Origin: Candidatus Eiseniibacteriota bacterium
Lineage (GTDB): Bacteria > Eisenbacteria > RBG-16-71-46
Direction of reading: 5' to 3'
Length of the DNA: 64,000 nucleotides
Assembly: GCA_036522895.1 (NCBI GenBank)
Contig: DATDEX010000286.1
Location: 3,929-67,928 of the forward strand
Shown: positions 178 through 21,842 of the stretch, piece after piece
Numbering within the stretch: the stretch's first letter is position 1
How the letters are laid out: each line of letters opens with the position of its first letter
Position numbers and translations under genes: made by a program
Notes under the pieces: model-generated
Databases searched by the model: none
The model's input: only the letters and a program-made list of their open reading frames with translations
What the model was told of the DNA's origin: nothing

Positions 178-1896
178 TTGATCGCGGCGATGTCAGTGAT
201 CCGGCGAGAGGGCACGATCTTGTCCCAGTCGAAGGACCGCGACGGAACCCGTCGGGAAGCCTCGGACCGAAGCCTGTTCGATCCACACGGTGGAGCCGGC
301 GCCTCCACGGGACTGAGCACGAGCTGGCATCTGCCCCGCGACCTTCGGCTTCAGGCGACCCGGCGACTTCGCGTGATCGCCCTCCTTTACGCGCTGGCGT
401 TTTTCCTCGCGGATTTCGGTCCGCCGCTGTTCCTGGGCTCCATCCGGGAGAAGTTCCAGGATCCCATCGACTGGGCGGCGACCGCGGCCTCGATCGTCGC
501 GGGATTGGTCGTCGCCGCGCTCGTCGCCAGCCCACGATTGAGCTGGGAGACCAAGGTGAACCTGGGCCTCGTGTTCGAGGTCGCGGCGAGCTACGGGATT
601 GCCCTCTCTCAGTACCTCGGGGTCTCGGTGGTGGCTGCCGCGCCGATCGTCCTGCACGTGATCTCGCCGTCGTGGGTCGCGGTCTGGATGGTGTTTTTCG
701 CGGTCGTGGTCCCCGCACCGCCCGGTCGGGCTCTGCTCGCGCTCATCGGCGCGGCGTCCGCTCCGCCCGTCGTGATCGGCCTCGCCCTTCATCACGCCGG
801 GCTCTCGCATCTCATGTCCCCGTCCATGTTCTTCCTCCACCACGTGTTCACGTACATGATCTGCGCGATGCTGGGCTACGTGGGCGCGCGCGTCGTGTAT
901 GCACTTGGCGCGGATGTCTCGCGCGCACGCGAGCTGGGGAGCTATCGATTGATCGAGCGTCTCGGCGCCGGGGGAATGGGGGAGGTGTGGAAGGCTTCAC
1001 ACCACCTGCTCGCAAGGCAGGCCGCGATCAAGTTCATCCGGCCGGACGCGATCGCGAGTTCCGACCCCCAGGAGACGAAAACCGTGCTCAAGCGGTTCGA
1101 ACTCGAGGCGCGGGCCACCGCCTCGTTGAGCTCGGCACACACGGTTGCGATCTACGACTACGGGGTCACCGACGACGGCACGTTCTACTACGTCATGGAG
1201 CTGCTCGACGGTATGGACTGCGATCGCCTCATCCGCTCGTTCGGACCGCTTCCCCCCGCGCGCGTCGTGCACCTAATGGCACAGGTGTGTGAATCGCTCG
1301 AAGAGGCACACGACAAGCACCTGATCCACCGGGACGTGAAGCCCGCCAACATCTATGTGTGCCGGTCGGGCAATCGCTGCGACTTCGTGAAGGTGCTCGA
1401 TTTCGGCATCGTGGCCCACCCGCTCGCGCCATCGGTGCCCGAGCTCCGGCTCACGCTTCCGCAGGAAGCGGTCGGAACGCCGCAGTTCATGGCCCCCGAG
1501 GTGGCACTCGGGCAGAAGCTGGACGGCCGCGCCGATCTCTACGGGCTCGGCTGTGTGGCCTACTGGCTCGCCGCGGGAAGGCCGGTGTTCGAGGGCTCGA
1601 GTGTCTACGACGTCATCGCGAAACACCTGCACGAGCCACCCGATCCCCCATCCCTTCACGCGCCGGGGGGGATGCCGCCCGAGCTGGACGCGCTGATCCT
1701 GCGCTGCCTCGCCAAGGAGCCGGCACAGCGACCCGCGGACGCCCGCGAGCTCGCTCGCCAGCTCCGCGTCCTTCCGCTCCCCGACCCGTGGAGTGAGGAG
1801 CTCGCGGAAGCCTGGTGGAACGACCGCCTCGCGAGCGGAGCCAGCCCCGGCCGGGGGGTGACCGGCGACTTGACCGGCGCGCCGACGGAGTCCTAG
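178..1896 (+). CDS. Membrane-anchored Ser/Thr protein kinase: N-terminal polytopic membrane domain fused to a C-terminal Hanks kinase
   Basis: About 240 aa of hydrophobic helices at the N-terminus. Kinase motifs follow: glycine loop LGAGGMGEVWKA, VAIK lysine, catalytic loop HRDVKPANI, DFG (DFGIV) and APE (MAPE). Confidence 0.8.
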   Translation: MIAAMSVIRREGTILSQSKDRDGTRREASDRSLFDPHGGAGASTGLSTSWHLPRDLRLQATRRLRVIALLYALAFFLADFGPPLFLGSIREKFQDPIDWAATAASIVAGLVVAALVASPRLSWETKVNLGLVFEVAASYGIALSQYLGVSVVAAAPIVLHVISPSWVAVWMVFFAVVVPAPPGRALLALIGAASAPPVVIGLALHHAGLSHLMSPSMFFLHHVFTYMICAMLGYVGARVVYALGADVSRARELGSYRLIERLGAGGMGEVWKASHHLLARQAAIKFIRPDAIASSDPQETKTVLKRFELEARATASLSSAHTVAIYDYGVTDDGTFYYVMELLDGMDCDRLIRSFGPLPPARVVHLMAQVCESLEEAHDKHLIHRDVKPANIYVCRSGNRCDFVKVLDFGIVAHPLAPSVPELRLTLPQEAVGTPQFMAPEVALGQKLDGRADLYGLGCVAYWLAAGRPVFEGSSVYDVIAKHLHEPPDPPSLHAPGGMPPELDALILRCLAKEPAQRPADARELARQLRVLPLPDPWSEELAEAWWNDRLASGASPGRGVTGDLTGAPTES

Positions 1897-1951
1897 CCCC
1901 GCTCGTGCAAGCTCACGGCGACCGCGAAGCTCACTCGATTCCTGCTCCCCG

Positions 1952-3790
1952 GTGGCGTCGGCGGTGCGCTACAATCTCCCGATGCCACTGACCGTCGGTA
2001 CCCGTCTCGGCCCCTATGAAGTCCTCGCCCCGGTCGGTGCGGGGGGGATGGGCGAGGTCTATCGCGCGCGGGACACCCGTTTGGGCCGCGATGTGGCGGT
2101 CAAAGTGCTCCCCTCGCACCTGACCGAGAGCGCCCAGGCCCGCGCCAGGTTCGAGCGCGAAGCGCGCGTCGTTTCGGGGCTCAACCACCCGCACATCTGC
2201 GTGCTCCACGATCTCGGGCGGGAGGGCGAGATCGACTACCTCGTCATGGAGCTGGTCGAGGGCGAGTCGCTCGCGGACCGGCTTTCCCGCGGCCCGCTCC
2301 CGATCGCCGAGGTGCTGCGGCTCGGGGCCGAGATCGCCGACGCGCTCGACCGTGCGCATCGGGCCGGCGTGGTGCACCGCGACTTGAAACCCGGCAATGT
2401 GATGCTCTCCAAGTCCGGGGCCAAGCTCATGGACTTCGGGCTCGCCCGCGAAGGCCGCCCGGGAGGCGCCTGGATCGCGTCCGGTTCCGGGCCCGGGCCG
2501 ATGTCGCAGTCGCCGACGATCGCGACGCCACTCACGGCCGAGGGCGCGTTCGTCGGCACGAGCCACTATATGGCGCCCGAGCAGCTCGAGGGCTACGAGG
2601 CCGACGCGCGCAGCGACCTGTGGGCGCTCGGCTGCGTGCTCTACGAGATGGCCACCGGGCGACGCGCGTACGAGGGATCGACACCGGCCTCGCTGATCTC
2701 TTCGATCATGAAGGACCAACCCCGCCCGACGACCGAGTTTGCGCCGCTCACGCCGGCGGGCCTCGACCGCGTGCTCCGCGCCTGCCTGGCCAAGGATCCG
2801 GAGCAGCGCTGGCAGAATGCGCACGACGTGGCGCTCGCGCTGCGCTGGCCGGCGGCGGAACCCGTGGCCGTGGGTCGCTCGGCCGGGTCGCTCAGCCAGC
2901 GGGAGTTCGTGCTCACCGCCGGGCACGTGCGCCAGCTCGCCGAGCGGAATCCGCGGCTCGTGGGCTATCCGGTGACCTACGTCGACAACCAGGTCCAGTC
3001 CGACCAGCTGGTGGTGTTCCTGCACGGGCTCGGGGCCGACGGCGGCCAGTTCGAGCTTTTCCTCAACGCCTCACCACATCGCGCCGTCGCGGTCACGCTG
3101 GTCGGGTTCGGGCGGGAGGAGAAGCGCCGCCCCACCCTGGGGCTTGACGACCATTCGCGCGTGCTGCGCATGCTGCTGCGCGAGATCGTTGCCGAGTGCC
3201 GGCCCCGGCGCACGCTCCTCGTCGGGCACTCGGCGGGCGCCGACCAGCTCCTGCGCATGCTGCATGAGGACGCCGCGGCCGGCGTCAAGATCGACGGGCT
3301 CATCGCGCTCGGCCCGAACGTCAGCCTCGGCACCTGCTTCGCCACCCGGCTCTATGCGAAGATCGACGCCGCCAATCCGGATGGCACGCTCGCGATCCTC
3401 AAATCGCTCGCCGAGCACATCGACTCGCTCGAGACGTGGCTCGTGGTGCAGAGCTACTTCGCGCAAATGTTCATCAAGCTCGGCGCGGACCTGGAGCCGC
3501 TCCGGCGTTACGCCGCCGACCTGGTGCGACCGTTCGAGGAGCCCGGCGATCCGCTGGCGGATTGGTACCGGAGCGCGAAGCAGCGCGTCCAGAACGTTCG
3601 GCTCGTGTTCTCGAACGAGGAGGCCGCGGCCGCGGAAGCGCTCCTGGCCCGCCATCTCGAGAGCAACGTGCTGGGCGACGACTTCACGGAGAGCTCGTTC
3701 GCGATCGAGCGCGTGCACCACCTAGCGCTGCTCGAAATCGGCCTCGTCACCCGACACGTCGAGGAAGTGTTCCGCTCGATTCACGACTAG
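1952..3790 (+). CDS. Ser/Thr protein kinase fused to a C-terminal alpha/beta-hydrolase domain
   Basis: Kinase motifs: VGAGGMGEVYRARD, VAVK, HRDLKPGNVML, DFGLAR, SHYMAPE. The C-terminal half has VVFLHGLGADG and the nucleophile elbow GHSAG typical of the alpha/beta-hydrolase fold. Confidence 0.8.
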   Translation: MASAVRYNLPMPLTVGTRLGPYEVLAPVGAGGMGEVYRARDTRLGRDVAVKVLPSHLTESAQARARFEREARVVSGLNHPHICVLHDLGREGEIDYLVMELVEGESLADRLSRGPLPIAEVLRLGAEIADALDRAHRAGVVHRDLKPGNVMLSKSGAKLMDFGLAREGRPGGAWIASGSGPGPMSQSPTIATPLTAEGAFVGTSHYMAPEQLEGYEADARSDLWALGCVLYEMATGRRAYEGSTPASLISSIMKDQPRPTTEFAPLTPAGLDRVLRACLAKDPEQRWQNAHDVALALRWPAAEPVAVGRSAGSLSQREFVLTAGHVRQLAERNPRLVGYPVTYVDNQVQSDQLVVFLHGLGADGGQFELFLNASPHRAVAVTLVGFGREEKRRPTLGLDDHSRVLRMLLREIVAECRPRRTLLVGHSAGADQLLRMLHEDAAAGVKIDGLIALGPNVSLGTCFATRLYAKIDAANPDGTLAILKSLAEHIDSLETWLVVQSYFAQMFIKLGADLEPLRRYAADLVRPFEEPGDPLADWYRSAKQRVQNVRLVFSNEEAAAAEALLARHLESNVLGDDFTESSFAIERVHHLALLEIGLVTRHVEEVFRSIHD

Positions 3791-9621: not shown

Positions 9622-12600
9622 TCAATGGAGCACCACGACTTTTCGCGTCCGCGTCTGCGCGCCGCTGCTCAGCCTGACCAGGTAGACGCCGCTCGGCATG
9701 CGCGCCCCGACGGCGTCGCGCGTGTCCCAGCGGGCCGTGCTCCGGCCGGCGCGCGCCGGGCCCTGCGCGATCACGCGCACGCGGCGGCCGGCCAGATCGT
9801 AAACCGCCAGCTCGAGCGCGGCGCCGTTCTGCTCGATCGGCACGCCGAAGGCGAACTGCAGTTCCGTACGCACCGGGTTGGGATGCGGTGCGGCAAGCTC
9901 GAGCGTGCGGGGCGCGACGTCCAGCGCCGGCTCGACGCCGACCGCGTCCGTGGTCTCGCTAAAGCCGGTGCGCCGGGCATCGTGGTGGAACTGCGGCCAC
10001 GGGGCAGGGCCCGCGGGCGAGAACGGGAAGTCGTAGTCCCACACGTGCACCGTGCCGCCGAAATCGACGGTGACGATTTCGCTCATCCCGTCGCCGTCGC
10101 AATCGCACAAGGCCGGCGTGCCCGAGGCTTCGGCGGACATCGTGATGGGGAATCCCGGCAGCATGGCGCCGGTCACCCCGCTCAGCGCCGCGAGCGATCC
10201 GTTCTCGTCGCCCACGACGACGTCATTCACGCCGTCGCCGTTGATGTCGGCCACCACCGGGCTCGCGATCGTCGCGTCGCTCGTGAGCGAAGAAAAGCGC
10301 GAGGCGGCCGTCCATGGCGGGACGGCGGCGCCGTTCCGGTCGAACACGTACACGCGCCCGTTGCCGGAGGCGAGCACGATGTCGGTGAATCCGTCGCCGT
10401 TCATGTCGGCGAGCGCGGGCGAGGATCCCTGGCCGATCCCGGCGGGCGGGAGGAACACCGGGAACCCGGGGCGGCTCGCTCCGTTCGCCAGTTGGACGTG
10501 GATCGAGCCGTCGGCAACCGGTACCACGATCGAGAGCTGCCCGGCGGGCCCATCCAGCCGTCCGACCGCGACCGAGCCGAGGATCGGGGCGCCGAGATTG
10601 ACCGGGAACCCCGTCACGTTCGTTCCGTCCGGCTTCCATGCGTACAGGAACCCATCCGCGCTGCCGTACACGATGGCCAGCTGCCCGGGGCCGAGCAGCG
10701 GGGCGAGCGCCGGAGTGCCGGTGTTGAAGCCATTCCCGAGCGTCTTGAACACCCCGATCGTGGCCGGGTTGAGGTCGCCGTCGAGCCATTCGCTGCCGTC
10801 CGCGCGAAACGCGTAGAGCGCCGCCCCGAGCGATCCGAACACGATCTCCTGGTGCTGATCGCCGTTCAAATCGCCGACGGCCACGCTCGACCAGATCGGG
10901 TCAGGCAACGGCACCGGGAATCCGGGGCGCGGTACCCCCTGGGCATCGAACGCGAGGAGCTGCTTCGACGTGAACGTCGCGCCGATCACGTCGCGTCCGC
11001 CATCGCCGTCGAGGTCGGCGAACGATCCTCCGCCCCGGTAGAATCGGCCGAGCGTCGTGAAGTCGCCCGGGGTGGCGCTCGAACCATCGGCATCCACCGG
11101 CGCGGTGCCGTTGGAGTGGAACAGGTGAAGCACGTTGCCACCCACGAGAATGTCCATGCCCCCGCCGCTCGCCCGCGCCACCGCCACCGGGGTCTCGGAC
11201 GTCTCGCGCGTGAACGCGGGGAAGCCGCCGTGATCCGCCGGACCCGTGCTCGCCGAAGCCGGAGCGCTCGGGCTCGATTCGTTCCCCGAGCTGTCCACCG
11301 CGGTCACCTCGTAGTAGTAGCGCGCGAGCGGGGCCAGGTCCGCATCCGCCCAGCTCGAGGTTCGTCCGAGCGGGAGCGGCGTGACCTTCACGAACGGACC
11401 GGCGGCGGCGACGGCGCGATACACGTTGTAGCCCGCGAGGTCCGGCGCCGGATCGTGCTCCCACTCGAGCGTCACGCGGCCCGCGCCGCCTGCGGCGGCG
11501 ACCGCGTTGACCGCGGCCGGATAGCCCATGTCCAGGAGCTGGGTGAGGCGTGATCCGGTCGCGTCGTCGATCTCGAGCAGGAGTTTCGCGTCGGCGCTCC
11601 CGGGCACGAAGCGCACCGGCGTGGTGCTGGCCTCCGCGCCCGGCGGCAGATCGGGCAGCGTGAGCGTCGAGTCGAGCACGACCGCCAAGCCATCGAGGTC
11701 TCGCAGGTGGCCGACGAGCGCGTGCGCGTCGGCCTTGCCCACGTTACGCACCCGGAACGTGTAGCGGACGGTCTCGCCCGGCTGCGGCCGGCCGTCGTTG
11801 TTGCCGGCCTCCTCGCTCTCGGCATGCGCGACCTGCACGAGCTCCGGTGAGCGGAGAAGCAACTGGAAGTGCTGCTGCTGCTGGAGGCCGCCATCCCCGG
11901 CAAGGTCGAGCGTGAACGCGACCTCGTGCTGGTCGGGAGCGTCGGGATCGATCGCGACCCGGAAGCCGCTGGCCGGGGAGGAGGTGGCGGCGGGATCGAT
12001 CGCGCCGTAGTCGGCCGTGGGAACCGGAATCGTGATCCAGGGATCCGCGGTGCTCAGCGTGCCGGTGACCGCGGCCGCAGGCGTCCCGCCCGCGTTGTGC
12101 ACGGGCACCACCAGGTCCACGAGCTCGCCCGCGTCGGGAAGGCCATCCGCGTCGCCGTGCCGGCCCGCGAACGAATCGTCGAGCACGGCCGGGGCCGCTG
12201 CCTGGAGCGCGGCGGGAGCGCCCGCCACCACCCGGAGCGATCGCCGCCAGGGGCGCGCGTTGAACGCCGTCACCGTGAGCGAGCAGGCGCCGACCGAGTC
12301 GGGGTGGAACTGCAGCATCGCGTTGCCCGACCCGTCGGTCAACGCGGAGCGGTACTCGTGGCCCGGCAACCATGCCGTGACCCGCGCGCCGAAAAGCGGC
12401 GTGCCGGCCACGGCGACCGCGACTGCGAGCTGGCCCTCTCCGGCCGCGATCGAATCGGGCGCCGTTACGGTCAGCTCGCGCGGGCGCGCCGTGAAGATGC
12501 GCAGCTCGGGATCGCCGAGCAGCAGGAGCTCCAGCTCGCTCAGCCGGCCGAAGCCGTCGGATTGCGACACGCCGACGAACGGCAGTTTCTGCCGGGCTTG

Positions 12601-14205
12601 CGCCTCGCCCACGGCCGTCACGCTGTCCTGGAACAGCACGCGGAAGTACTCCCGCTGGAACCCCCGGCTGAACTTCGGATAATCGAGCCGCGTCGAGCCG
12701 ATGTTCGTGACCGCACCGCCCGCCGGGGCGCGGAGGAGCGCCTCGCCGATCGAGGCGAAATCGATCGCGTTCGAGGTGCAATCGATGGCGTAGAAGTTCA
12801 TCAGCCGGTCGCCGTTGGTGAGCGCGTGCATGTCGGGGTTGCTCAGGTTGTCGTCGCCGCACGACATCACCTCCCGGTACCCGTGCCCGACGTGCGTCAC
12901 GAGGTTGTATCCGACCTGGAGGGAGTCGAACACCGCCGCGCGCGTCTCGTGCACCGACCCGGGCCGCCAGCTCGGGTTCGAGTCGTTCTGGTACATGCGG
13001 GCCACGTGCATGTTCGGAACGCCGTCGAGGATCGGCATCTCGTCCGACTCCACGATCTGGGCGCCATCGAGCTGCACCAGCTGGCCGGGGCTCCAGGGCT
13101 CAGGCGTGATCACCTGGGCAAAGAAGAGGGCGTTTTCCATGTAGTCGGCAACCGGGGTCCGCTCGTACTTGAGCGTCTTCCGCACGAACAACTCGGCATC
13201 GGCCGGCGTCACGACCGGTGCGCGCCCGACCCAGACCTCGGGCAGCAGGTCCGCGTCGTCTCCCGCGTCGCCGGGGCCCGCGGACGCTTCCGCGAACAAG
13301 CTGTCGCCATCGGCGTTCCAATTGCCATCGAGACACGAGTAGTAGAGGTCGGTCGGGACGAACTCGTCGTCCAGGAACGACACGTGCGCGATGCGCGGCG
13401 GAATGAGCTCGGTGTCGCCGCCGAGCAGCACCCAGCGCGTGCCCCAGCGGCTGTACGCATCGCGGATGAACAGCCGGACGCGCTCGGGGTCGTCGACCGC
13501 CGCCGGGTACTGTTCGCGAATGAAGCTCAGCGTGCGCACCGCGGCGGGCACCCCGCTCGCGGTCTTCCAGTCCGCGAGCGGCTGGAACGCGGGCACCAGC
13601 GCATCGCTCGTGATGATGAGATAGGCGACCGGGCTCCCGAGCAGTGACGGCACCTGGGTGGGGCGAAACGGCGTTGCCGCGTCGGGGCGGGGAAGGGGGA
13701 CGGCTCGCGGCGCGTCGGCCGGCGTCCCGACCGCCTCGGCGGCGTGCGTCCGGCCCTGTGATCGCTCGGCGCTTGCCGGGGGTGGGCCGCCCGCGTCCTC
13801 CCAGTCCGGCACCACGCGCTCGCGCGGGAGAGGAGCGCTGGTGGATGGCTCGAGGTCGAGCCTCACCCGCAACTCCATCGCGTGCCGCGCGTGCCCCGCG
13901 GGCAGCCCGCAGCCATCGGGAAGCTCGAGCCACGCCAGGTGTCGACCGCGCTGGAAGCCCTGATAGCCGATGCGGACCGTGATCCCGGCGGGGGCGCGCG
14001 CACCGTCCTCCGCGCACTCGAGCGAGACGACCTCGACCCGCGTGATGCGTTGGCCATCCGGAAGGTCGAGCGGTCCGGCGGCGGGCAGGCGGTCCGGGTC
14101 GACCTGGAGCGTCCGGGTCACGGTGACGACCGCGCGGGCCGGGCTCACGAGCGCCAGAAGCAGAAGGGCCGCTAAGCCGGGGAGCCGAATCACGCGCAAG
14201 AGCAT
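9622..14205 (-). CDS. Large secreted C25 (gingipain-type) cysteine peptidase with FG-GAP/VCBS repeats, FN3-like domain and T9SS C-terminal domain
   Basis: Signal peptide MLLRVIRLPGLAALLLLALVSPARA. C25 N-terminal signature YLIITSDALVPAFQPLADW...VLLGGDTELIPPR...DLYYSCLDGNWNADGD...VGRAPV. Multiple DxNGDGxxDVVVG FG-GAP repeats. CTD ending ...VYLVRLSSGAQTRTRKVVVLH. Confidence 0.75.
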   Translation of the reverse strand: MLLRVIRLPGLAALLLLALVSPARAVVTVTRTLQVDPDRLPAAGPLDLPDGQRITRVEVVSLECAEDGARAPAGITVRIGYQGFQRGRHLAWLELPDGCGLPAGHARHAMELRVRLDLEPSTSAPLPRERVVPDWEDAGGPPPASAERSQGRTHAAEAVGTPADAPRAVPLPRPDAATPFRPTQVPSLLGSPVAYLIITSDALVPAFQPLADWKTASGVPAAVRTLSFIREQYPAAVDDPERVRLFIRDAYSRWGTRWVLLGGDTELIPPRIAHVSFLDDEFVPTDLYYSCLDGNWNADGDSLFAEASAGPGDAGDDADLLPEVWVGRAPVVTPADAELFVRKTLKYERTPVADYMENALFFAQVITPEPWSPGQLVQLDGAQIVESDEMPILDGVPNMHVARMYQNDSNPSWRPGSVHETRAAVFDSLQVGYNLVTHVGHGYREVMSCGDDNLSNPDMHALTNGDRLMNFYAIDCTSNAIDFASIGEALLRAPAGGAVTNIGSTRLDYPKFSRGFQREYFRVLFQDSVTAVGEAQARQKLPFVGVSQSDGFGRLSELELLLLGDPELRIFTARPRELTVTAPDSIAAGEGQLAVAVAVAGTPLFGARVTAWLPGHEYRSALTDGSGNAMLQFHPDSVGACSLTVTAFNARPWRRSLRVVAGAPAALQAAAPAVLDDSFAGRHGDADGLPDAGELVDLVVPVHNAGGTPAAAVTGTLSTADPWITIPVPTADYGAIDPAATSSPASGFRVAIDPDAPDQHEVAFTLDLAGDGGLQQQQHFQLLLRSPELVQVAHAESEEAGNNDGRPQPGETVRYTFRVRNVGKADAHALVGHLRDLDGLAVVLDSTLTLPDLPPGAEASTTPVRFVPGSADAKLLLEIDDATGSRLTQLLDMGYPAAVNAVAAAGGAGRVTLEWEHDPAPDLAGYNVYRAVAAAGPFVKVTPLPLGRTSSWADADLAPLARYYYEVTAVDSSGNESSPSAPASASTGPADHGGFPAFTRETSETPVAVARASGGGMDILVGGNVLHLFHSNGTAPVDADGSSATPGDFTTLGRFYRGGGSFADLDGDGGRDVIGATFTSKQLLAFDAQGVPRPGFPVPLPDPIWSSVAVGDLNGDQHQEIVFGSLGAALYAFRADGSEWLDGDLNPATIGVFKTLGNGFNTGTPALAPLLGPGQLAIVYGSADGFLYAWKPDGTNVTGFPVNLGAPILGSVAVGRLDGPAGQLSIVVPVADGSIHVQLANGASRPGFPVFLPPAGIGQGSSPALADMNGDGFTDIVLASGNGRVYVFDRNGAAVPPWTAASRFSSLTSDATIASPVVADINGDGVNDVVVGDENGSLAALSGVTGAMLPGFPITMSAEASGTPALCDCDGDGMSEIVTVDFGGTVHVWDYDFPFSPAGPAPWPQFHHDARRTGFSETTDAVGVEPALDVAPRTLELAAPHPNPVRTELQFAFGVPIEQNGAALELAVYDLAGRRVRVIAQGPARAGRSTARWDTRDAVGARMPSGVYLVRLSSGAQTRTRKVVVLH

Positions 14206-14379: not shown

Positions 14380-14778
14380 GTGCCGCGTAAGACCATCCAG
14401 CCAGACGGCCTGTTCGATAGCCGGAAATACGGCTTCTCGCAGATCGCAGTCGGTGAAGGCAGCCGCGTCGTCACGATCTCGGGGCAGGTCGGGTGGGACA
14501 AGGACGAGCGCGTCGTCGGCGCGGACCTGAAGCAGCAGACCATGCTGGCGCTGCAGAATCTGAAATACGCCATGGAGGCAGCGGGGGGCTCCCTGGACGA
14601 TGTCCTCCTGCTGCACATCTACATCGTGGAATCGGTGATGACGAAGGACACGGCCGTCCGCGATTGCCTGCAAACCGTCTTTCCCGACGCGCCGCCTGCC
14701 ACGAGCTGGATCGGCGTGTCGCGTCTCTCCGCCCCGGATTTTCTTGTGGAGATTGAAGCGATCGGCGTCCTGCCCTGA
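14380..14778 (+). CDS. ridA: RidA/YjgF/TdcF family reactive-intermediate deaminase
   Basis: The FSQIAVGEGS..VTISGQVGWDKDERVVGADLKQQTMLALQNL..AMEAAGGSLDDVL pattern is typical of the YjgF/RidA family. Length 132 aa. Confidence 0.8.
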   Translation: MPRKTIQPDGLFDSRKYGFSQIAVGEGSRVVTISGQVGWDKDERVVGADLKQQTMLALQNLKYAMEAAGGSLDDVLLLHIYIVESVMTKDTAVRDCLQTVFPDAPPATSWIGVSRLSAPDFLVEIEAIGVLP

Positions 14779-14848
14779 ACCGGGCCGTCGGCGATCGGGT
14801 CGGTGGAGCCCCGCGAAACCGGGTCGCGCCGCACTCCCGTGACGGCGC

Positions 14849-16309
14849 TCAGATGTCCGCGGCCTCGTACTTCCGCACCCACCCCGCGTAAAGGAAGATG
14901 CCGATCGCCGATGCGATGCCGACGGCGACGAACGGATACCAGAGCTTGTAGGGATGGTAGGCGCTCCAGAGCAGCCGGGTGGCGGCGCTCGCGTCGAGGT
15001 GGTTCACGCGCTGCAGCGCCTCCATCGCGGTCGTCCGATCCACGCCCGCCGGCACGCCGCCATGATCGCCGAGGTACTTGAGCGCCAGGCCGGCTTTCTC
15101 CCCGATGCGCCCGTAGAGGTCGCCGGCGAGGAACGAGCCGTACGCCCAGCCGATCGCCGTCGGCATGTTCGCGTATCCCATATAGAGACCTTTCTTGCCC
15201 TCCGGAGCGATGATGCCGAGATAATCGTTCATCTTGGGGCTCGACAGCATCTCGCCCACCGCGAAGAGCGCGATGCCGAGCAGGCAGGAAACACCCGACA
15301 TGGTGAAGCCCGCGGCGAGCAGGCCCAGGGACGCGACCGCGATGCCGATGAAGATCGAGTGCACGCGCCGCATTCGTGCCACGAGGTGCGAGACCCAGAC
15401 GACGCACAGAACGATCATGAACGCGTCCAGGTTGATCATCCATTCCTGCGCCACCATCGGGCCGCGCGGGGTCTGGGTCGTGAACATCGCCGGCAGGTGC
15501 ATCGCCCTCACGATGCTCGAGGAATCCACCCAGTCCACGATGAAGTTGGGCAGCAGGTCGAAGAGCTGCATGAACATCAGCCAGAAGCCGGACATGATGA
15601 GGATGAACGTGATCAGGCGCGGGTTGAAGAGATTCGTGAACGTGAGTAGGGCGGTCTGCAGCACACCGCCCGACTTGTTCCCCCCGGCGTCCACGCTCGG
15701 GTAGGTGAGCAGCATCAGGAAGTTCAACGAGACGATCACCGCGCACCCGTAGAAGACCGTCGGCCACGAGAAGCCGTACAGAAAGTGCGCCAGGGGCGGC
15801 CCCAGGAACCCGCCGACGTTCACGAGCATGTAGAAGACGCCCCAGCCGACCGAGGAATTGCTCTTGTCCATCGTCCGCTGCAGCGAGCCCCACACCCCGG
15901 GCTTGAAAATCGCCGTGCCGAACGCCAGGACGAGGCACCCGATCGTGAACGGCCAGAAGCCGCGCTGGGTGGCCATCAGCAGGTATCCGGCGATCTTGAT
16001 GGCAATCGAGACGGCGATCGTCTTCTTGTAACCGTAGCGGTCCGCGAACCCGCCCGAGAAGATCGGCACGCCCGTCTGGACGAGCGCCCACAGCGTGAAG
16101 ATGAAGCCCTTTTGCGACTGCGTGAAGTGCAAGCCGTGGATCTCGTCGGCCTGCGCGATGTAGATGGGGATCACGACACGCACGCCGAAGTAGGCCAGGC
16201 GCTCGAACATCTCCATCATGTTGAGCATCCAGAACGCGCGGGAAAGGTGCGAGAGTTGCGCGAACATCCCGGTTCTTGGCGGGCTGGCGGCCTGCGGCAT
16301 CGAGCTCAT
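14849..16309 (-). CDS. POT/PTR2-family MFS transporter (di/tripeptide:proton symporter-like)
   Basis: N-terminal FWMLNMMEMFERLAYFG matches the POT signature (compare FxIxxxExWERFxYYG). About 12 TM helices. Start taken at MSSM (16309); the ORF extends to 16351. Confidence 0.7.
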   Translation of the reverse strand: MSSMPQAASPPRTGMFAQLSHLSRAFWMLNMMEMFERLAYFGVRVVIPIYIAQADEIHGLHFTQSQKGFIFTLWALVQTGVPIFSGGFADRYGYKKTIAVSIAIKIAGYLLMATQRGFWPFTIGCLVLAFGTAIFKPGVWGSLQRTMDKSNSSVGWGVFYMLVNVGGFLGPPLAHFLYGFSWPTVFYGCAVIVSLNFLMLLTYPSVDAGGNKSGGVLQTALLTFTNLFNPRLITFILIMSGFWLMFMQLFDLLPNFIVDWVDSSSIVRAMHLPAMFTTQTPRGPMVAQEWMINLDAFMIVLCVVWVSHLVARMRRVHSIFIGIAVASLGLLAAGFTMSGVSCLLGIALFAVGEMLSSPKMNDYLGIIAPEGKKGLYMGYANMPTAIGWAYGSFLAGDLYGRIGEKAGLALKYLGDHGGVPAGVDRTTAMEALQRVNHLDASAATRLLWSAYHPYKLWYPFVAVGIASAIGIFLYAGWVRKYEAADI

Positions 16310-16499
16310 GCGGCCTCCGGAAGGAGTGTTGCTTGGGGGAGAGCACGGCAATCTCGAGTCTCAGCGTAGCCGCTCGCTCCAACCGATGAAAGCATCGCCG
16401 GTGCGCCGCCCACCTGTCCGACCGGTATCCGCCGCCACGCAGCACGACCCGACACGGGCGAAGGCCGGCGGATGACCTGGTGTGCGCCTCGTCTCCCCA

Positions 16500-16684
16500 C
16501 TAGCCCGGACTATTCATGAGCCCGCGGCCTGCGAACGCGATCTGGCGGCCATCCGCTGCGTTGCAGGCTCGGGGCGCTCCTCGACGTGTCTTCAGACACG
16601 TCTGCGGTGCGGCCCGACCCTGCGCCTTGCGGCTGGCCGCCATCTCGCATTCTCGGCTCGCGCTTCATGAATAGTCAGGGCTAG
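16500..16684. repeat. 185-bp concentric imperfect palindrome in a divergent intergenic region
   Basis: Outer 20-nt arms CTAGCCCGGACTATTCATGA (16500-16519) and TCATGAATAGTCAGGGCTAG (16665-16684) are reverse complements with 1 mismatch. A perfect inner hairpin GACGTGTC-TTCA-GACACGTC (16583-16602) shares the same centre. The intervening arms show partial dyad symmetry. Confidence 0.7.
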
Positions 16685-16695
16685 ATTCACGCGTC

Positions 16696-19026
16696 ATGCA
16701 GACCTCGACCGATCCGGCTCCGATACCTTATGAGTGGCTCTGGGGTTGGGACCCGACGCCCGGCATCGTCTCCGTGTGGGCGGAGCCGTCCGGTCTCGCG
16801 GTCATTTGGCGGCGGCTACCGGGCTCGGGGGCGCTGATCCGCGAAGAGGCCCGGTTTCGGCCGTGGCTCGTGCTCGATCGGCTCGACGATCTCGCGCATC
16901 TCGGCACGGGCCTCGCGCCCGACGGCACTCCCCACGCACTCGTGACGTACCGAGAACTCGCCGGGCCGGGCCAGCTGCGGTTCCTCGTGAGCGCCGACGA
17001 CGGGCGGACCCTGTCGCGAGCGGTGTTGACGGGTGCGTCGCGCCGCATGGGACACGCCCTCCGTCACGTGCGCGACCTCGGCAAGACCGCGGTGCTGTCG
17101 CTGCCGCCCGAGGAGCAGTACCTGGTCATGACGGGGCGGTCGTATTTCCGCGACCTCGCCTTCGATCAACTTCGTCGATTGCAGTTCGACCTCGAGACGA
17201 CCGGCCTGGACCCCGCGCGGAGCCGGATCTTCATGATCGCCGTGCGACATCCCTCCGGGGCCGAGGAGGTGCTCGAGGCCGCGGGCGAAGATGACGCCGC
17301 GGAGGCGGGACTCATCCGGCGGTTGGTGGCGACGGTGACCGAATCGGACCCCGACGTGATCGAGAATCACAACCTCCACGGCTTCGACCTGCCGTTCCTG
17401 GAGCGGCGTGCCCGGGCGCTGGGCGTGCAGCTCGGTCTCGGCCGGATTCCGTCCCTGGGTGTCCGGGCGAGGGCCGCGCGCCGAGACCAGCTCCGTTACG
17501 TGCTCCCGGGACGCGAGTGTATCGATACGCTCGACGCGGTCCGCCGCTACGATTTTGCGGTTCGCGAACTGCCCGGGCACGGGTTGAAGGCGGTGGCGCG
17601 GCATTTCGGGATCGCGGCGTCGGACCGTGAGCTGATCCCCGGCGAGCAGGTCCACGCGACCTACCGGACCAATCCCGAGCGGGTCCTCCGCTACGCCACG
17701 GCCGACGTCACCGAGGTCGCGGCTCTCGCCCGACTGCTCGGCGGTGCGGCATTCGCGCTCGCCCAGCTGGCGCCGCGCCGATACGAACGGTTGGCGGACG
17801 CCGGTGCCGCGACCGGTGTGATCGACCCGCTCCTGGTTCGAACCTATCTGCGAGCCGGGCACGCGCTGCCGGCGCACGAGGCCGGCGATGGGACGAGCCA
17901 CAGTGGCGCGGCCCTGCACCTCTTCGCGACCGGGGTGGCGGAGCGCGTGGTGAAGGCCGACGTCGCGAGCCTCTACCCATCCTTGATGCGAACGCATCGG
18001 ATCGGGCCGAGCCGTGACCGGCTCGGTGCGCTGCTGGCGCTGGTGGACGGCCTCGTCGAACGGCGCCTCGCGGCGAAGGCGGCGGCCAGGTCGGCTCCCG
18101 CGGGCTCGGCGGAGCGGTTCGCGCACGAGGCGATGTCGGCGGCGATGAAACTGGTGGTGAACACGGCCTACGGTTACCTGGCGGCGGGCGGGCTCACTCG
18201 ATTCGCGGACGTCCACGCCGCGAACGAGGTGACCCGCCACGGACGCGAGACCCTCGATCTCATGTGCCGCGAGCTCCAGGCCCGGGGCGTGATCCGGCTC
18301 GAGGCGGATACCGATGGGGTCTATTTCGCGGTGCCACCGGGGTGGACCGAGGCGGAAGAGAGGCGCGTGGTGGCGGAGGTCGGCGCGCTCCTGCCGCCGC
18401 TGGTTCAACTCGAGTTCGAGGGGCGTTACGCCGCCATGCTGTCGCACGAGCCCAAGAACTACGCGCTTCTCGGCTACGACGGCCGGCTGGTGCTTCGCGG
18501 GGTGGCGTTTCGATCGAGCCGGGCCGAGCCCTTCGGTGAGGCATTCCTCCGGCGGGCCGTGTCACGTTTGCTGACCGGCGACATCACCGGGGTACGGCAG
18601 GCGTACGTCGACACCGTGGCCGCGCTCAGGCGGCGGGAATACTCGACCTTCGAGGTGTCGTCGCGGGTGCGATTGACCAAGACGCCGGCGCAGTATCGGG
18701 CTTCGCGTGCAGGTCGACGCGAACACCCCTACGAGGCCCTGCTGGCCGCCGGGCGACGCGACTGGCGACGGGGCGAGCGCGTCCGGGTGTTCCGGGCTCG
18801 CGATGGTTCGGCCGGGCTCGTGACCGAGCGCGCGGAGAATGTCGATCACCAGGCCGACAAGCGCGACTACGACGTCGAACACTACCTGCGTGTGCTCAAG
18901 GACAACTACGCCTCGAGACTGGCCCGGGCGTTCGAGCCGGCGGATTTCGCGGCAATGTTCGCGGACCCGAACCAGGCCTCGCTGTTCCCTCCGGCGTACG
19001 GCGAGATCCGGCCGGTGCTCCGATGA
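16696..19026 (+). CDS. polB: Family-B DNA polymerase (DNA polymerase II-like)
   Basis: Exo I FDLETTGL. Pol motif A DVASLYPSL (DxxSLYPS). Motif B KLVVNTAYGYL (KxxxNSxYG). Motif C LEADTDGVYF (DTD). 776 aa, similar to E. coli Pol II at 783 aa. Confidence 0.8.
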   Translation: MQTSTDPAPIPYEWLWGWDPTPGIVSVWAEPSGLAVIWRRLPGSGALIREEARFRPWLVLDRLDDLAHLGTGLAPDGTPHALVTYRELAGPGQLRFLVSADDGRTLSRAVLTGASRRMGHALRHVRDLGKTAVLSLPPEEQYLVMTGRSYFRDLAFDQLRRLQFDLETTGLDPARSRIFMIAVRHPSGAEEVLEAAGEDDAAEAGLIRRLVATVTESDPDVIENHNLHGFDLPFLERRARALGVQLGLGRIPSLGVRARAARRDQLRYVLPGRECIDTLDAVRRYDFAVRELPGHGLKAVARHFGIAASDRELIPGEQVHATYRTNPERVLRYATADVTEVAALARLLGGAAFALAQLAPRRYERLADAGAATGVIDPLLVRTYLRAGHALPAHEAGDGTSHSGAALHLFATGVAERVVKADVASLYPSLMRTHRIGPSRDRLGALLALVDGLVERRLAAKAAARSAPAGSAERFAHEAMSAAMKLVVNTAYGYLAAGGLTRFADVHAANEVTRHGRETLDLMCRELQARGVIRLEADTDGVYFAVPPGWTEAEERRVVAEVGALLPPLVQLEFEGRYAAMLSHEPKNYALLGYDGRLVLRGVAFRSSRAEPFGEAFLRRAVSRLLTGDITGVRQAYVDTVAALRRREYSTFEVSSRVRLTKTPAQYRASRAGRREHPYEALLAAGRRDWRRGERVRVFRARDGSAGLVTERAENVDHQADKRDYDVEHYLRVLKDNYASRLARAFEPADFAAMFADPNQASLFPPAYGEIRPVLR

Positions 19027-19212: not shown

Positions 19213-19752
19213 ATGCGCACGCTCGTCTTGATCGTGTTTCTTCTCGCCGGTTCCGCGAGCAGCCTCGCCGCGCAGCCATCGCGCCACACGAGGGCCCAGG
19301 AGATCGCGGCGTCGTTCAACAAGTACAAAAACGTCGTCAAGGAGAAACGCGGCTCCCGAAAGCACGTCTACAAGGACGTCCGATCGGAGCCTGACCTCAA
19401 GGCGAACCTCCGCGACTACTCGGGCACGTATGAGGTCCCGGACCTGGGTCTCGGGATCGTCATTCGAGTCGACCGCGATGGCGGCACCCAGGGGGAGGGG
19501 TATGAGACGGGTCAACCGTCACCCACGTTCACCCTCGAGAACGCGACAGTCCGCGACGGAGTGCTTTCCGCGACCAGGAGACTTCGCGACGGAACCGCGG
19601 AAAAGCTCGAGGGCGTGTTCATGACCCGCACGGAGCGCAAGAGCCCGACCGACGGCGGCATCACGACCTCCGGATTGGGAGTCGTCCTCGGATCACCCGT
19701 CGAACGAGATGGCATTACCTACGAGAGGCTCTTCTATCAGTCGAAACGGTGA
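19213..19752 (+). CDS. Hypothetical secreted protein
   Basis: AGGAGG ribosome-binding site at 19201-19206. Signal peptide MRTLVLIVFLLAGSASSLAAQ. No recognisable domain. Confidence 0.45.
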   Translation: MRTLVLIVFLLAGSASSLAAQPSRHTRAQEIAASFNKYKNVVKEKRGSRKHVYKDVRSEPDLKANLRDYSGTYEVPDLGLGIVIRVDRDGGTQGEGYETGQPSPTFTLENATVRDGVLSATRRLRDGTAEKLEGVFMTRTERKSPTDGGITTSGLGVVLGSPVERDGITYERLFYQSKR

Positions 19753-20000
19753 TGTCGGGAGGCGCCCGATGTGGGGCGACTCCGCTCGTGCGAGCACGAG
19801 TTGCCGGACGCACGGGCTCGCCCTCGAGCCTGTCGCCGGGCACTTCAGTGGACGGACGCGGCGGGAAAGGGGTCATGCCGTTTCACTTGGTCGTTGACCA
19901 GGCAAATGGGACGCGCCTAGGCTCTCCGGGCGGCTGGAGCCGCATCACCCGAGATGGTCGGGCTCGGCGACGATCCGAGGACGACGATGTGGAGCACCCC

Positions 20001-21842
20001 ATGACGATCTGGATCCGTCCACGCGTCGCGCTCGTGTTCACGATGTTCCTGGTCGCCGCGCTCGGCGTGGCGATCCGTCCCGCCGCCGCGCAACTCGTCC
20101 CCGGCCCGGCAGAGGGCTACCTCATCATCACGACGAGCGCGCTCGCGAGCGAGTTCCAACTGTTCGCGGAGTGGAAGCGCCGGCTCGGGCTGCCGACCAC
20201 GGTGAAGACCATCGAGGCGCTCCGGTCGGAGTATCCGGCCGCGGCAGACGACGCCGAGCGCATGCGCCTCTGGATCAGGGACCAGTACACCGGCCCTGGC
20301 GCGCGCTGGGTGCTGCTCGGCGGAACGGCCGCGCTCGTTCCCACGCGTTACGCGACCACACAGTTCTTCGGCGGCGCGCTCATCCCCACCGATCTCTATT
20401 TCAGTTGCCTCGATGGCTCGTGGAACGCGGACGGCGATGCGCTCTGGGGAGAAGGCTACGCGAGCGCGAGCGATCCCGGTGACGATGCCGACCTCCTCCC
20501 CGAGGTCTGGGTCGGCCGCGCGCCGGTGACTAACGCGGCGGAAGTACGTGCGTTCGTCGTGCGCAGCATCCAGGCCTCGCTCGAGCCGGCCCACCCCCGG
20601 CCGCCGCGCGCCTTGCTCGCCGCGGAGGTGCTGTTTCCCCAGGTGTGGTCGCAGGGGGACCCGGTGTCGCTCGACGGGGCGCAGCTCGCCGAGGAGTTGC
20701 TGCCGCGGCTGAACGCCGGCGGGTTCGCGACGCGCCGTCTTTACGAGAACTTCAGCGATCCGCAGTGGACCGCCGGGAGCGAGCCGCTCGGCCGGCAGGC
20801 GTTCCTCGACGCGTTCGACGCGGGCAATGATCTCGTGCTCGTGTTCGACTCCGAGACGCAGACCGAGCTAGGCATGGGCGGATCCGACGTCGTGAGCGTG
20901 TCCGACATCGAGGCACTCACGAACACGCTTCCGCTCTCGCACGTGTACTTGTGGGGCGGCCTGGGGCCGTGCGGGCCCGATTCGCCCATCGGCCCCGCGT
21001 TCTTCCATTCACCGGGTGGCTCGCCCAGCGGCGCGGCCACCGTGGTGGGGCTCACGCAGTTCGCGTTCCCGACTGCATTGCGTGCGTACGCCGACGAGTA
21101 CTTCCGACTGCTCATCGACGACGACGTGAGAGCTTTGGGCGAGACGCTGGGCCGCTCGCGGCTTCCGTTCGTCCAATTCTCGGTGTACGACGGCGTGAAC
21201 CGCTGGACGCAGATGGCGCTCACGATGTTCGGCGACCCGCAGCTGAGCCTGCCGCGGCGCGCCGCGCACGACTTGGCGCTCGCCGCGCCCGCGACCGTCG
21301 ACGTTGGGGTGGGCGGAGTTCCGGTCCACGTCACCGAGGACGGCGTCGCCAAGCCGGGCGTCGTCGTGACCGCGTACCGTGCGGCCGAGGGGATCGCGAC
21401 GGCGACGACCGACGCGCAGGGCGACGCGCTCGTGCCGTTCTCCGCGAGCGCATCGGGAGAGATCTCGCTCACGGCTCGCCAACCCGGCTCGCCCGTCGAA
21501 GTCGACAGCGTCGACGCGGTCACCCCGACCGGGGTGCCGGCGCCCCCCGGCGTCACCCGATTCGCGTTTGCGCTGCCCCGGCCCAATCCCAGCTCGGGAG
21601 ACGTCCTCTTCCGCTGGAGCGTGCCCGCCGACCTGGCGGACGCCCGCTCGAGGCTCGTGCTCCACGATCTCGCCGGGCGCATCGTTCGCACCTGGGACGC
21701 GGGGGCGGGAGCCGCGTCCGCTCGCAGCATGACATGGGACGGCCGCGATGCGATGGGCGGCAGCTCGCCCCCCGGGCTCTACGTCGCGCGGCTCGTCGTG
21801 GGCGATCGAGTGCTCACTCGGCTCGTGGTCCGGACGCGCTGA
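20001..21842 (+). CDS. Secreted C25-family peptidase paralog with T9SS C-terminal domain
   Basis: Signal peptide MTIWIRPRVALVFTMFLVAALGVAIRPAAA. N-terminal region is about 50% identical to the 9622-14205 protein (YLIITTSALASEF...VLLGGTAALVPTRY...DLYFSCLDGSWNADGD...VGRAPV). CTD ending ...LYVARLVVGDRVLTRLVVRTR. Confidence 0.65.
   Translation: MTIWIRPRVALVFTMFLVAALGVAIRPAAAQLVPGPAEGYLIITTSALASEFQLFAEWKRRLGLPTTVKTIEALRSEYPAAADDAERMRLWIRDQYTGPGARWVLLGGTAALVPTRYATTQFFGGALIPTDLYFSCLDGSWNADGDALWGEGYASASDPGDDADLLPEVWVGRAPVTNAAEVRAFVVRSIQASLEPAHPRPPRALLAAEVLFPQVWSQGDPVSLDGAQLAEELLPRLNAGGFATRRLYENFSDPQWTAGSEPLGRQAFLDAFDAGNDLVLVFDSETQTELGMGGSDVVSVSDIEALTNTLPLSHVYLWGGLGPCGPDSPIGPAFFHSPGGSPSGAATVVGLTQFAFPTALRAYADEYFRLLIDDDVRALGETLGRSRLPFVQFSVYDGVNRWTQMALTMFGDPQLSLPRRAAHDLALAAPATVDVGVGGVPVHVTEDGVAKPGVVVTAYRAAEGIATATTDAQGDALVPFSASASGEISLTARQPGSPVEVDSVDAVTPTGVPAPPGVTRFAFALPRPNPSSGDVLFRWSVPADLADARSRLVLHDLAGRIVRTWDAGAGAASARSMTWDGRDAMGGSSPPGLYVARLVVGDRVLTRLVVRTR

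Follow-up and report, generated by a model that had tools for sequence, protein, structure and literature searches.

Between two divergently transcribed genes of a Candidatus Eiseniibacteriota bacterium lies a sequence (positions 16500-16684) that reads as a series of palindromes nested around one centre, which raises the question of what such a structure is and how it came to stand there. The window, that is, the whole stretch of DNA that was analysed, comprises 64,000 nt of contig DATDEX010000286.1 (assembly GCA_036522895.1). A first-pass annotation, made from the letters of the window, had named three candidates: a MITE-like non-autonomous element, a structured non-coding RNA, or a large operator through which a dimeric regulator would control both genes. 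The two flanking genes were assigned as follows.

14849..16309, minus strand: divergent MFS transporter gene (Pfam MFS_1, E 1.2e-27)
16696..19026, plus strand: family-B DNA polymerase / RNase H-like gene, polB (Pfam RNase_H_2, DNA_pol_B, DNA_pol_B_exo1)

The first-pass annotation had placed the palindrome between a divergent POT transporter and polB. The divergent arrangement was confirmed, but the POT label was not: MFS_1 is the sole Pfam match of the transporter, and the oligopeptide:H+ symporter model reached 56.6 bits against a cut-off of 130. The start codon of the MFS gene (ATG, 16309-16307) has GGAGG upstream and is located 190 bp from the left CTAG of the palindrome. The polB start codon (ATG at 16696), common to nine aligned homologues, is located 11 bp downstream of the right CTAG.

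Several further features of the neighbourhood were recorded. Over the transporter region the longest open reading frame (14619-16445, minus strand, 608 aa, GTG start) matches no family and is not the coding frame; the MFS gene itself is read in the overlapping frame from ATG 16309 (ORF 14849-16351, minus strand). The PolB-like protein shares 72-75% identity with proteins labelled Gemmatimonadetes, Gemmatirosa, Longimicrobium and Solibacter usitatus. This cross-phylum conservation is unusually high, and these identities suggest either strong constraint or horizontal transfer. The names carried by homologues put the host in or near Candidatus Eisenbacteria. Two large Peptidase_C25 proteins flank the locus (9622-14205, minus strand, and 19749-21842, plus strand); they carry FlgD_ig or type IX secretion sorting tails, and one also carries FG-GAP repeats.

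The palindrome is composed of outer arms of 20 nt (16500-16519 and 16665-16684; 95% complementary), inner arms of 34 nt (16523-16556 and 16629-16662; 76% complementary) and a central stem of nine perfect pairs (16583-16591/16594-16602), all of which share a centre at 16592-16592.5. The near-perfect 20-nt repeat, the common centre and the partial dyad symmetry between arms and apex described in the first-pass annotation were thus all recovered, and its perfect central hairpin, given there as an 8-bp stem, has nine pairs. The whole of 16500-16684 forms a single long imperfect hairpin on either strand. With RNA parameters its predicted folding energy is -127.1 kcal/mol for the plus strand (z -12.6) and -133.1 kcal/mol for the minus strand (z -11.1); DNA parameters give -73.1 (z -10.6). 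None of 200 shuffled sequences folded as stably in any of the three runs. A simple rho-independent terminator had been discounted earlier for want of a U-tract, in agreement with a scan of 16250-16760 in which no terminator-like site was found and no T-run follows either arm. The open reading frames inside or beside the palindrome (16482-16670, plus; 16306-16500, minus; 16218-16475, plus) gave no Pfam match. When the arm 20-mer was searched in the 64-kb window with up to three mismatches, only its own two arms were found (chance expectation 0), and no second palindrome of comparable size was found in the window.

The origin of the structure becomes apparent from comparison with related loci. 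On a contig whose polB is 99% identical (L001), the element is present and the contig stops within it: positions 1-160 of this contig, which comes from an independent assembly, correspond to window positions 16537-16696, and the part of the element that it includes is identical in sequence. The element is absent from a second relative (L002, polB 88% identical). In a third (L003, polB 86% identical) the site is uninterrupted (CCCCACTAG-AGTCGCGCCCATG) and reads CTCCCCACTAGAGTCGCGCCCATG. The window has, in order, TCTCCCCACTAG, the element with a second CTAG, and ATTCACGCGTCATG; once the element and one of the CTAG copies are taken out, it aligns colinearly with L003 across the junction. L003 therefore represents an empty site, and the target that was duplicated is CTAG, direct copies of which bracket a 177-bp core (16504-16680). 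Judged from this alignment, 16504-16680 is an insertion flanked by a CTAG target-site duplication, and it would be a recent event in this lineage, 11 bp ahead of the polB start codon. The parts of the inserted sequence are given below.

16504..16680, no strand assigned: whole MITE, 177 bp (length mode of its subfamily 175-177 bp)
16500..16503, no strand assigned: left target-site duplication CTAG (direct CTAG on both sides of the element, single CTAG in L003)
16504..16519, plus strand: left terminal inverted repeat CCCGGACTATTCATGA, same as IS1380-family ends
16520..16664, no strand assigned: non-coding interior, dyad-symmetric over its full length (from the fold and from homology to 42 other copies)
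16583-16602, no strand assigned: hairpin apex GACGTGTCT/AGACACGTC, inside the interior
16665..16680, minus strand: right terminal inverted repeat CCCTGACTATTCATGA (minus-strand reading), one mismatch to the left repeat
16681..16684, no strand assigned: right target-site duplication CTAG (direct repeat; L003 empty site)

The 20-nt arms described initially are thus a real inverted repeat, but the outer 4 nt of each (CTAG) belong to the target-site duplication and lie outside the element. The terminal inverted repeats proper are 16 bp long and match at 15 of 16 positions.

Sequences with these ends are widespread. A scan with TARCCCKGACTATTCATGA, in which one genome per species was used, yielded at least 119 genome stretches, distributed over 14 or more phyla, against an estimated chance expectation of about 17. 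Among the matches listed there are Nitrospirota, Planctomycetota (including Brocadiaceae), Gamma- and Zetaproteobacteria, Acidobacteriota, Eisenbacteria, Myxococcota, Desulfobacterota-type lineages, Binatia, Rokubacteria, Chloroflexota, Gemmatimonadota, Spirochaetota, Rhodothermales and Bipolaricaulota. These stretches contain at least 71 short elements with paired ends, 26-345 bp in length, with modes at 159, 173, 176-177 and 194 bp. Direct repeats of 4 bp border many of the 71 listed elements: CTAG in 33, TTAA in five, TTAG in two and CTAA in two. As TTAG/TTAG and CTAA/CTAA are not palindromic, they represent a true 4-bp duplication (YTAR) and not an extension of the inverted repeat. Clustering of the interiors, again among the matches listed, revealed lineage-specific subfamilies (17 elements in Nitrospira, 11 in Gammaproteobacteria, five in Planctomycetota, and others), and the window copy clusters with four copies located at unrelated sites in other Eisenbacteria MAGs. 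A test of intergenic preference, by open reading frames over reconstructed empty sites, was non-discriminating: stop-free stretches of at least 150 codons spanned 85% of 72 sites and 97% of random positions, since high GC content yields long spurious ORFs.

The subfamily of the window copy was then followed in metagenomes with a pattern that excludes the flank (CCYGGACTATTCATGAGCCCG). It was found in 87 stretches, containing 53 complete copies with about 50 distinct flank pairs; 40 of the 53 are 175-177 bp long. Exact 4-bp duplications border 28 of the 47 copies for which both flanks are available (CTAG/CTAG in 25, CTAA/CTAA in two, CTGA/CTGA in one), and the remaining two-flank copies are mostly one base off a CTAG pair. 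Five copies from two related samples are 96-98% identical to each other and occupy different sites; the nearest relatives of the window copy are L150 (92% identical) and L182 (91%). The window holds one copy, and related elements are present in several copies on contig Ga0187893_10001403 (two: L183 and L200), in the Eisenbacteria MAG RBC018 (two loci: L032 and L051), on one gammaproteobacterial chromosome (at least five: L006, L020, L064) and in the Planctomycetota MAG OFTM220 (at least six loci). It had been proposed that a MITE should be multicopy and flanked by a duplication. Across genomes this expectation holds (about 50 sites, with 4-bp duplications), although the 64-kb window contains just the one copy.

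This distribution bears directly on the operator candidate, in which the palindrome would bind a dimeric regulator of both the transporter and polB. Dyad symmetry and the position between divergent genes are what such an operator would have. However, the same sequence occurs at about 50 unrelated sites, the same ends stand beside unrelated genes in at least 14 phyla, the element is absent upstream of the 86-88% identical polB genes of the relatives, and 177 bp far exceeds the typical length of an operator. We consider this explanation extremely unlikely.

Many of the MITE copies are located at contig ends, as expected of repeats. The transposase genes of the L187 type, described below, likewise nearly all occupy contig ends or short contigs (1.6-2.4 kb), so this repeat family fragments metagenome assemblies. 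Copies at contig ends, together with the termination of the 99%-identical L001 contig inside the palindrome, might be taken as signs of a fold-back chimera made by the assembler. Against such an artefact, the independently assembled L001 has the same sequence over the right three quarters of the element, the arms are imperfect (the inner part being 76% complementary), and 42 homologous full-length copies occur in further assemblies, among them long-read chromosomes such as OY969566.1. The probability of an artefact is in our view negligible.

Two kinds of derived locus were observed in the course of this survey. Perfect 26-bp "solo" palindromes (CCCGGACTATTCATGAATAGTCCGGG), in which two terminal repeats overlap at TCATGA, were identified in L056 (3093-3118 and 5622-5647), L107 (5820-5845), L103 (7577-7602) and L031 (2450-2475), all of them bordered by a separate 4-bp direct repeat (TTAA, CTAG or CTAA). 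Such palindromes may have arisen by deletion between the two TCATGA copies of a complete MITE; alternatively, they may be the smallest unit that can move. In L122 (834-2180) a Nitrospira MITE copy is interrupted by an IS110-family element with a 411-aa ORF (933-2168, minus strand; NCBIfam IS110, E 7.4e-50). IS110 elements are known for their habit of targeting palindromic repeats, and this insertion fits that preference.

Elements of full length with the same ends and 4-bp YTAR duplications point to the parent family. They comprise L081, L039, L187, L216, L217, L219 and ISPa33. L081 (1206-2884, 1679 bp) carries a 482-aa ORF matching Pfam DDE_Tnp_1_4 (E 7.5e-124) and NCBIfam IS1380 (E 1.4e-101); the transposase of L039 (310-1984) is 37% identical to it, and that of L187 (108-1751, 1644 bp, CTAG on both sides) matches IS1380 with E 3.7e-116. 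L216, L217 and L219 are full-length and have CTAG duplications, as does a full-length IS1380 element of Acidovorax. ISPa33, with ends CCCGGATTTCTCATGA and the duplication CTAA, is the nearest named relative in annotated plasmids. The left repeat of the window element (CCCGGACTATTCATGA) is identical to the ends of L187, L081 and L039, and identical to ISPa33 at 13 of 16 positions.

The IS1380 family, familiar chiefly from ISEcp1 and from the spread of resistance genes, consists of elements of about 1.6-1.7 kb with repeats of about 15-16 bp, ends that start with CC and duplications of 4-5 bp. The window element has just such ends: a CC start, 16-bp repeats and a 4-bp duplication. One described member, IS1247, is 1672 bp long, with inverted repeats of 16/13 and a direct repeat of 5 (PMC3281130).

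The shared sequence can be traced to one end of the parent. The left repeat and the next 5 nt (GAGCCCG) match the transposase-distal end (IRR) of L187-type elements, which reads CCCGGAYTATTCATGAGCCC and agrees with the left end of the MITE over 20-21 nt. Both MITE ends have TCATGA of the IRR type, not the TCGCGA or TCAGCA of the IRL type. Beyond about 21 nt no similarity of the MITE to the full-length elements was found, and it therefore did not arise simply by internal deletion; this pattern of ends suggests that its interior consists of two inverted copies of an IRR-like arm. No IS1380 transposase gene was found in the 64-kb window. Those of the L187 type occur on unbinned metagenome contigs of about 1.6-2.4 kb, none of which is assigned to Eisenbacteria.

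Parentage by another family was weighed against this evidence. IS5-group elements typically duplicate the 4-bp YTAR, and IS630 inserts at CTAG and duplicates TA, so that CTAG/YTAR is a classic target of both. However, the TTAG/TTAG and CTAA/CTAA pairs show a duplication of 4 bp and not 2 bp, and all the full-length elements found with these ends encode IS1380 transposases, none of them an IS5 or IS630 enzyme. On the latter ground IS5 or IS630 parentage was rejected; we regard it as very unlikely.

Taken together, these data make it highly probable that 16504-16680 is a 177-bp non-autonomous MITE with ISPa33-like IS1380 ends, inserted at CTAG and probably moved in trans. The MITE-like candidate of the first-pass annotation is thus upheld by the duplication, the empty site in a relative, the hundreds of copies elsewhere and the matching autonomous elements of the IS1380 family. 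In common with bacterial MITEs, the element is non-coding and shorter than about 500 bp, has terminal inverted repeats, a duplication with an empty site, and an autonomous partner. In the mechanism we propose, a DDE transposase of the IS1380 family would have recognised the 16-bp ends, cut the CTAG target and duplicated its 4 bp; mobilisation in trans by such an enzyme can be inferred from the shared ends.

In a rival explanation the palindrome is primarily a structured RNA. Such an RNA, for example a regulator or stabiliser in the 5' leader of polB or a small RNA gene, with palindromy under selection for RNA folding, would accord with the very stable predicted fold on both strands and with strong covariation among copies. 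In an alignment of 43 copies (A3), including the window copy, with a mean pairwise identity of 75%, standard pairs occupy 90.7% of the cells on the hairpin structure, compared with 79.2% in shuffles. Changes on both sides of a pair were seen at 40 of 74 pairs, in 375 cells, compared with 114 in shuffles and 48-70 when partners were slid by 1-3 columns. The covariation reaches position 3 of the terminal repeat, where 21 copies have CCCGG/CCGGG and 19 have CCTGG/CCAGG. The Nitrospira subfamily (16 copies, too alike) has double changes at only 4 of 56 pairs.

Strong covariation would be expected of an RNA, but the mismatches in the 43 copies do not have the form that RNA selection would give them. 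Wobble pairs are about equally frequent on the two strands (G:U in 92 cells, A:C in 101), and wobble-type mismatches equal other (transversion-type) mismatches in number (193 vs 193), so that the mismatches resemble unselected single mutations. In the 61 elements of all subfamilies the mean wobble imbalance is 2.6, which is close to the 2.27 expected from a binomial at 50:50. Double changes include frequent GC<->CG swaps without wobble intermediates. Since G:U is favoured on neither strand, we read the symmetry as a property of the DNA and not as evidence for a structured RNA. One orientation does fold better, by about 10 kcal/mol in 42 of the 43 copies, which may be counted in favour of an RNA, and the wobble counts do not explain this difference. 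Against an RNA stand also the roughly 50 unrelated sites of the copies, with a separate 4-bp duplication at each, and the orthologous polB leaders of relatives, which are without the element. A scan of 15500-17700 against Rfam 15 (E <= 1) returned noise only, the best match being MIR1437 with 28.3 bits against a gathering score of 168. We therefore judge the structured-RNA candidate quite unlikely. The check by folding and covariation that had been proposed gave a stable fold and strong covariation over 43 copies, and no strand-specific wobble signature was found; covariation alone is no demonstration of a structured RNA.

Returning to the MITE, we infer that whatever preserves the complementarity of its interior acts on the DNA, and that RNA function is not the cause. 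Two mechanisms could account for this: correction from arm to arm in fold-back DNA, or a transposition preference for those copies that are able to fold back. Strong covariation that lacks an RNA signature makes this family a clean example of dyad symmetry at the DNA level. The interior also contains asymmetric blocks that are conserved in sequence, with GCGTTG opposite CGCCTTGCG and CGACGTGT..ACACG at the apex; they occupy A3 columns 55-61, 82-101 and 122-132, corresponding to about 16557-16563, 16583-16602 and 16622-16632 of the window.

The insertion may have affected transcription of the downstream gene. Unlike the divergent MFS gene with its GGAGG, polB has no Shine-Dalgarno sequence. The empty site of L003 (4965-5003) contains TTGGTG-18 nt-TAGAGT, ending 7 nt before the polB ATG, and the site reconstructed from the window (16478-16503, 16682-16698) contains CTGGTG-18 nt-TAGATT, with 8 nt between its end and the ATG. 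Both arrangements resemble a promoter, which may be that of a leaderless polB mRNA. The insertion leaves TAGATT beside polB, places CTGGTG 181 bp away and brings the MITE sequence CGCGCT to the -35 position; it would thus have separated a -35-like from a -10-like element of the apparently leaderless gene. If this promoter has indeed been split, polB transcription would now need another start or read-through. Elements of the IS1380 family carry outward promoters (PMC9330008). No outward promoter is evident in the window MITE, and a simple consensus scan of 16250-16760 found no sigma-70-type promoter, in a host that may not use promoters of sigma-70-type consensus. The 190 bp upstream of the MFS gene are untouched by the insertion. 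That the region upstream of polB was recently disrupted is useful to know in studies of the expression of this widely conserved polB-like gene.

The present analysis allows a striking palindrome of the window to be annotated as mobile DNA, and defines a MITE family tied to IS1380 by a 16-bp end (CCCGGAYTATTCATGA), a 4-bp YTAR duplication, a length of 158-238 bp and a hairpin over the whole length. The family is easily searched for and is distributed over many phyla of uncultured bacteria. In the searchable literature, the coverage of which is incomplete (few subscription journals, ISfinder outside it), neither a description of an IS1380-derived MITE nor this end sequence was found. The element itself is of an ordinary kind, but the large multi-phylum hairpin family is undescribed in that literature; its breadth over phyla and its DNA-level covariation are points of modest interest.

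A wider reading is that these elements form a hairpin-MITE superfamily, as yet undescribed and spread over at least 14 phyla, that moves by means of ISPa33-like IS1380 (piggyBac-related) transposases. The two arms, transposase-binding ends included, would evolve in concert and so hold the whole interior as a Watson-Crick palindrome. We put it forward tentatively, as an idea that is possible and somewhat improbable. Were it true, fold-back or cruciform DNA would be an obligatory or strongly favoured substrate for the transposition of such miniature elements, and the insertion described here would also have rewired the transcription of a highly conserved leaderless polB-like gene.

Among known systems, the closest are the IS1380 elements of the ISPa33-like clade (ISPa33, L081, L039, L187, L211, L216-L219), which have the same repeats (CCCGGA...TCATGA) and 4-bp CTAG or CTAA duplications. 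The window element differs from them in its length of 177 bp, in lacking a transposase gene and in having only about 21 nt in common with them. Moreover, the ends of full-length IS1380 elements match each other over only about 13-16 nt, whereas the window element is a palindrome over its full length.

The REP/BIME sequences, which are mobilised by RAYT (IS200/IS605-like) transposases, are likewise palindromes scattered between genes, and IS110-type elements often insert into both kinds; the interrupted copy in L122 is an example. REPs are about 20-40 nt long, with a GTAG head and neither terminal inverted repeats nor a duplication. Membership in this group was rejected, the window element being 177 bp long with CCCGG ends and a 4-bp duplication.

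The eukaryotic transposon piggyBac duplicates the 4-bp TTAA and has ends that start with CCC and finish with GGG. IS1380 transposases are related to those of piggyBac and have served as an outgroup for them (PMC10813416). The elements described here have CCC...GGG ends and the duplication consensus YTAR, with TTAA in five of the 71 listed copies; they differ in being prokaryotic and in preferring CTAG over TTAA, and the likeness is one of ends and target.

Hairpin MITEs have been described in Neisseria (Correia/NEMIS), enterobacteria (ERIC/IRU), Streptococcus (RUP) and cyanobacteria (Nezha). Like these and the TIMEs, the present elements are small, non-coding and dispersed; they end in inverted repeats, are flanked by short duplications, can form long stem-loops and would be mobilised in trans by a cognate transposase. 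TIMEs derive from Tn3 (PMC4133298). The family described here differs in its IS1380 parent, in a duplication that is the 4-bp CTAG and not TA or 5-6 bp, and in ends that are common to at least 14 phyla, in the form of lineage-specific subfamilies.
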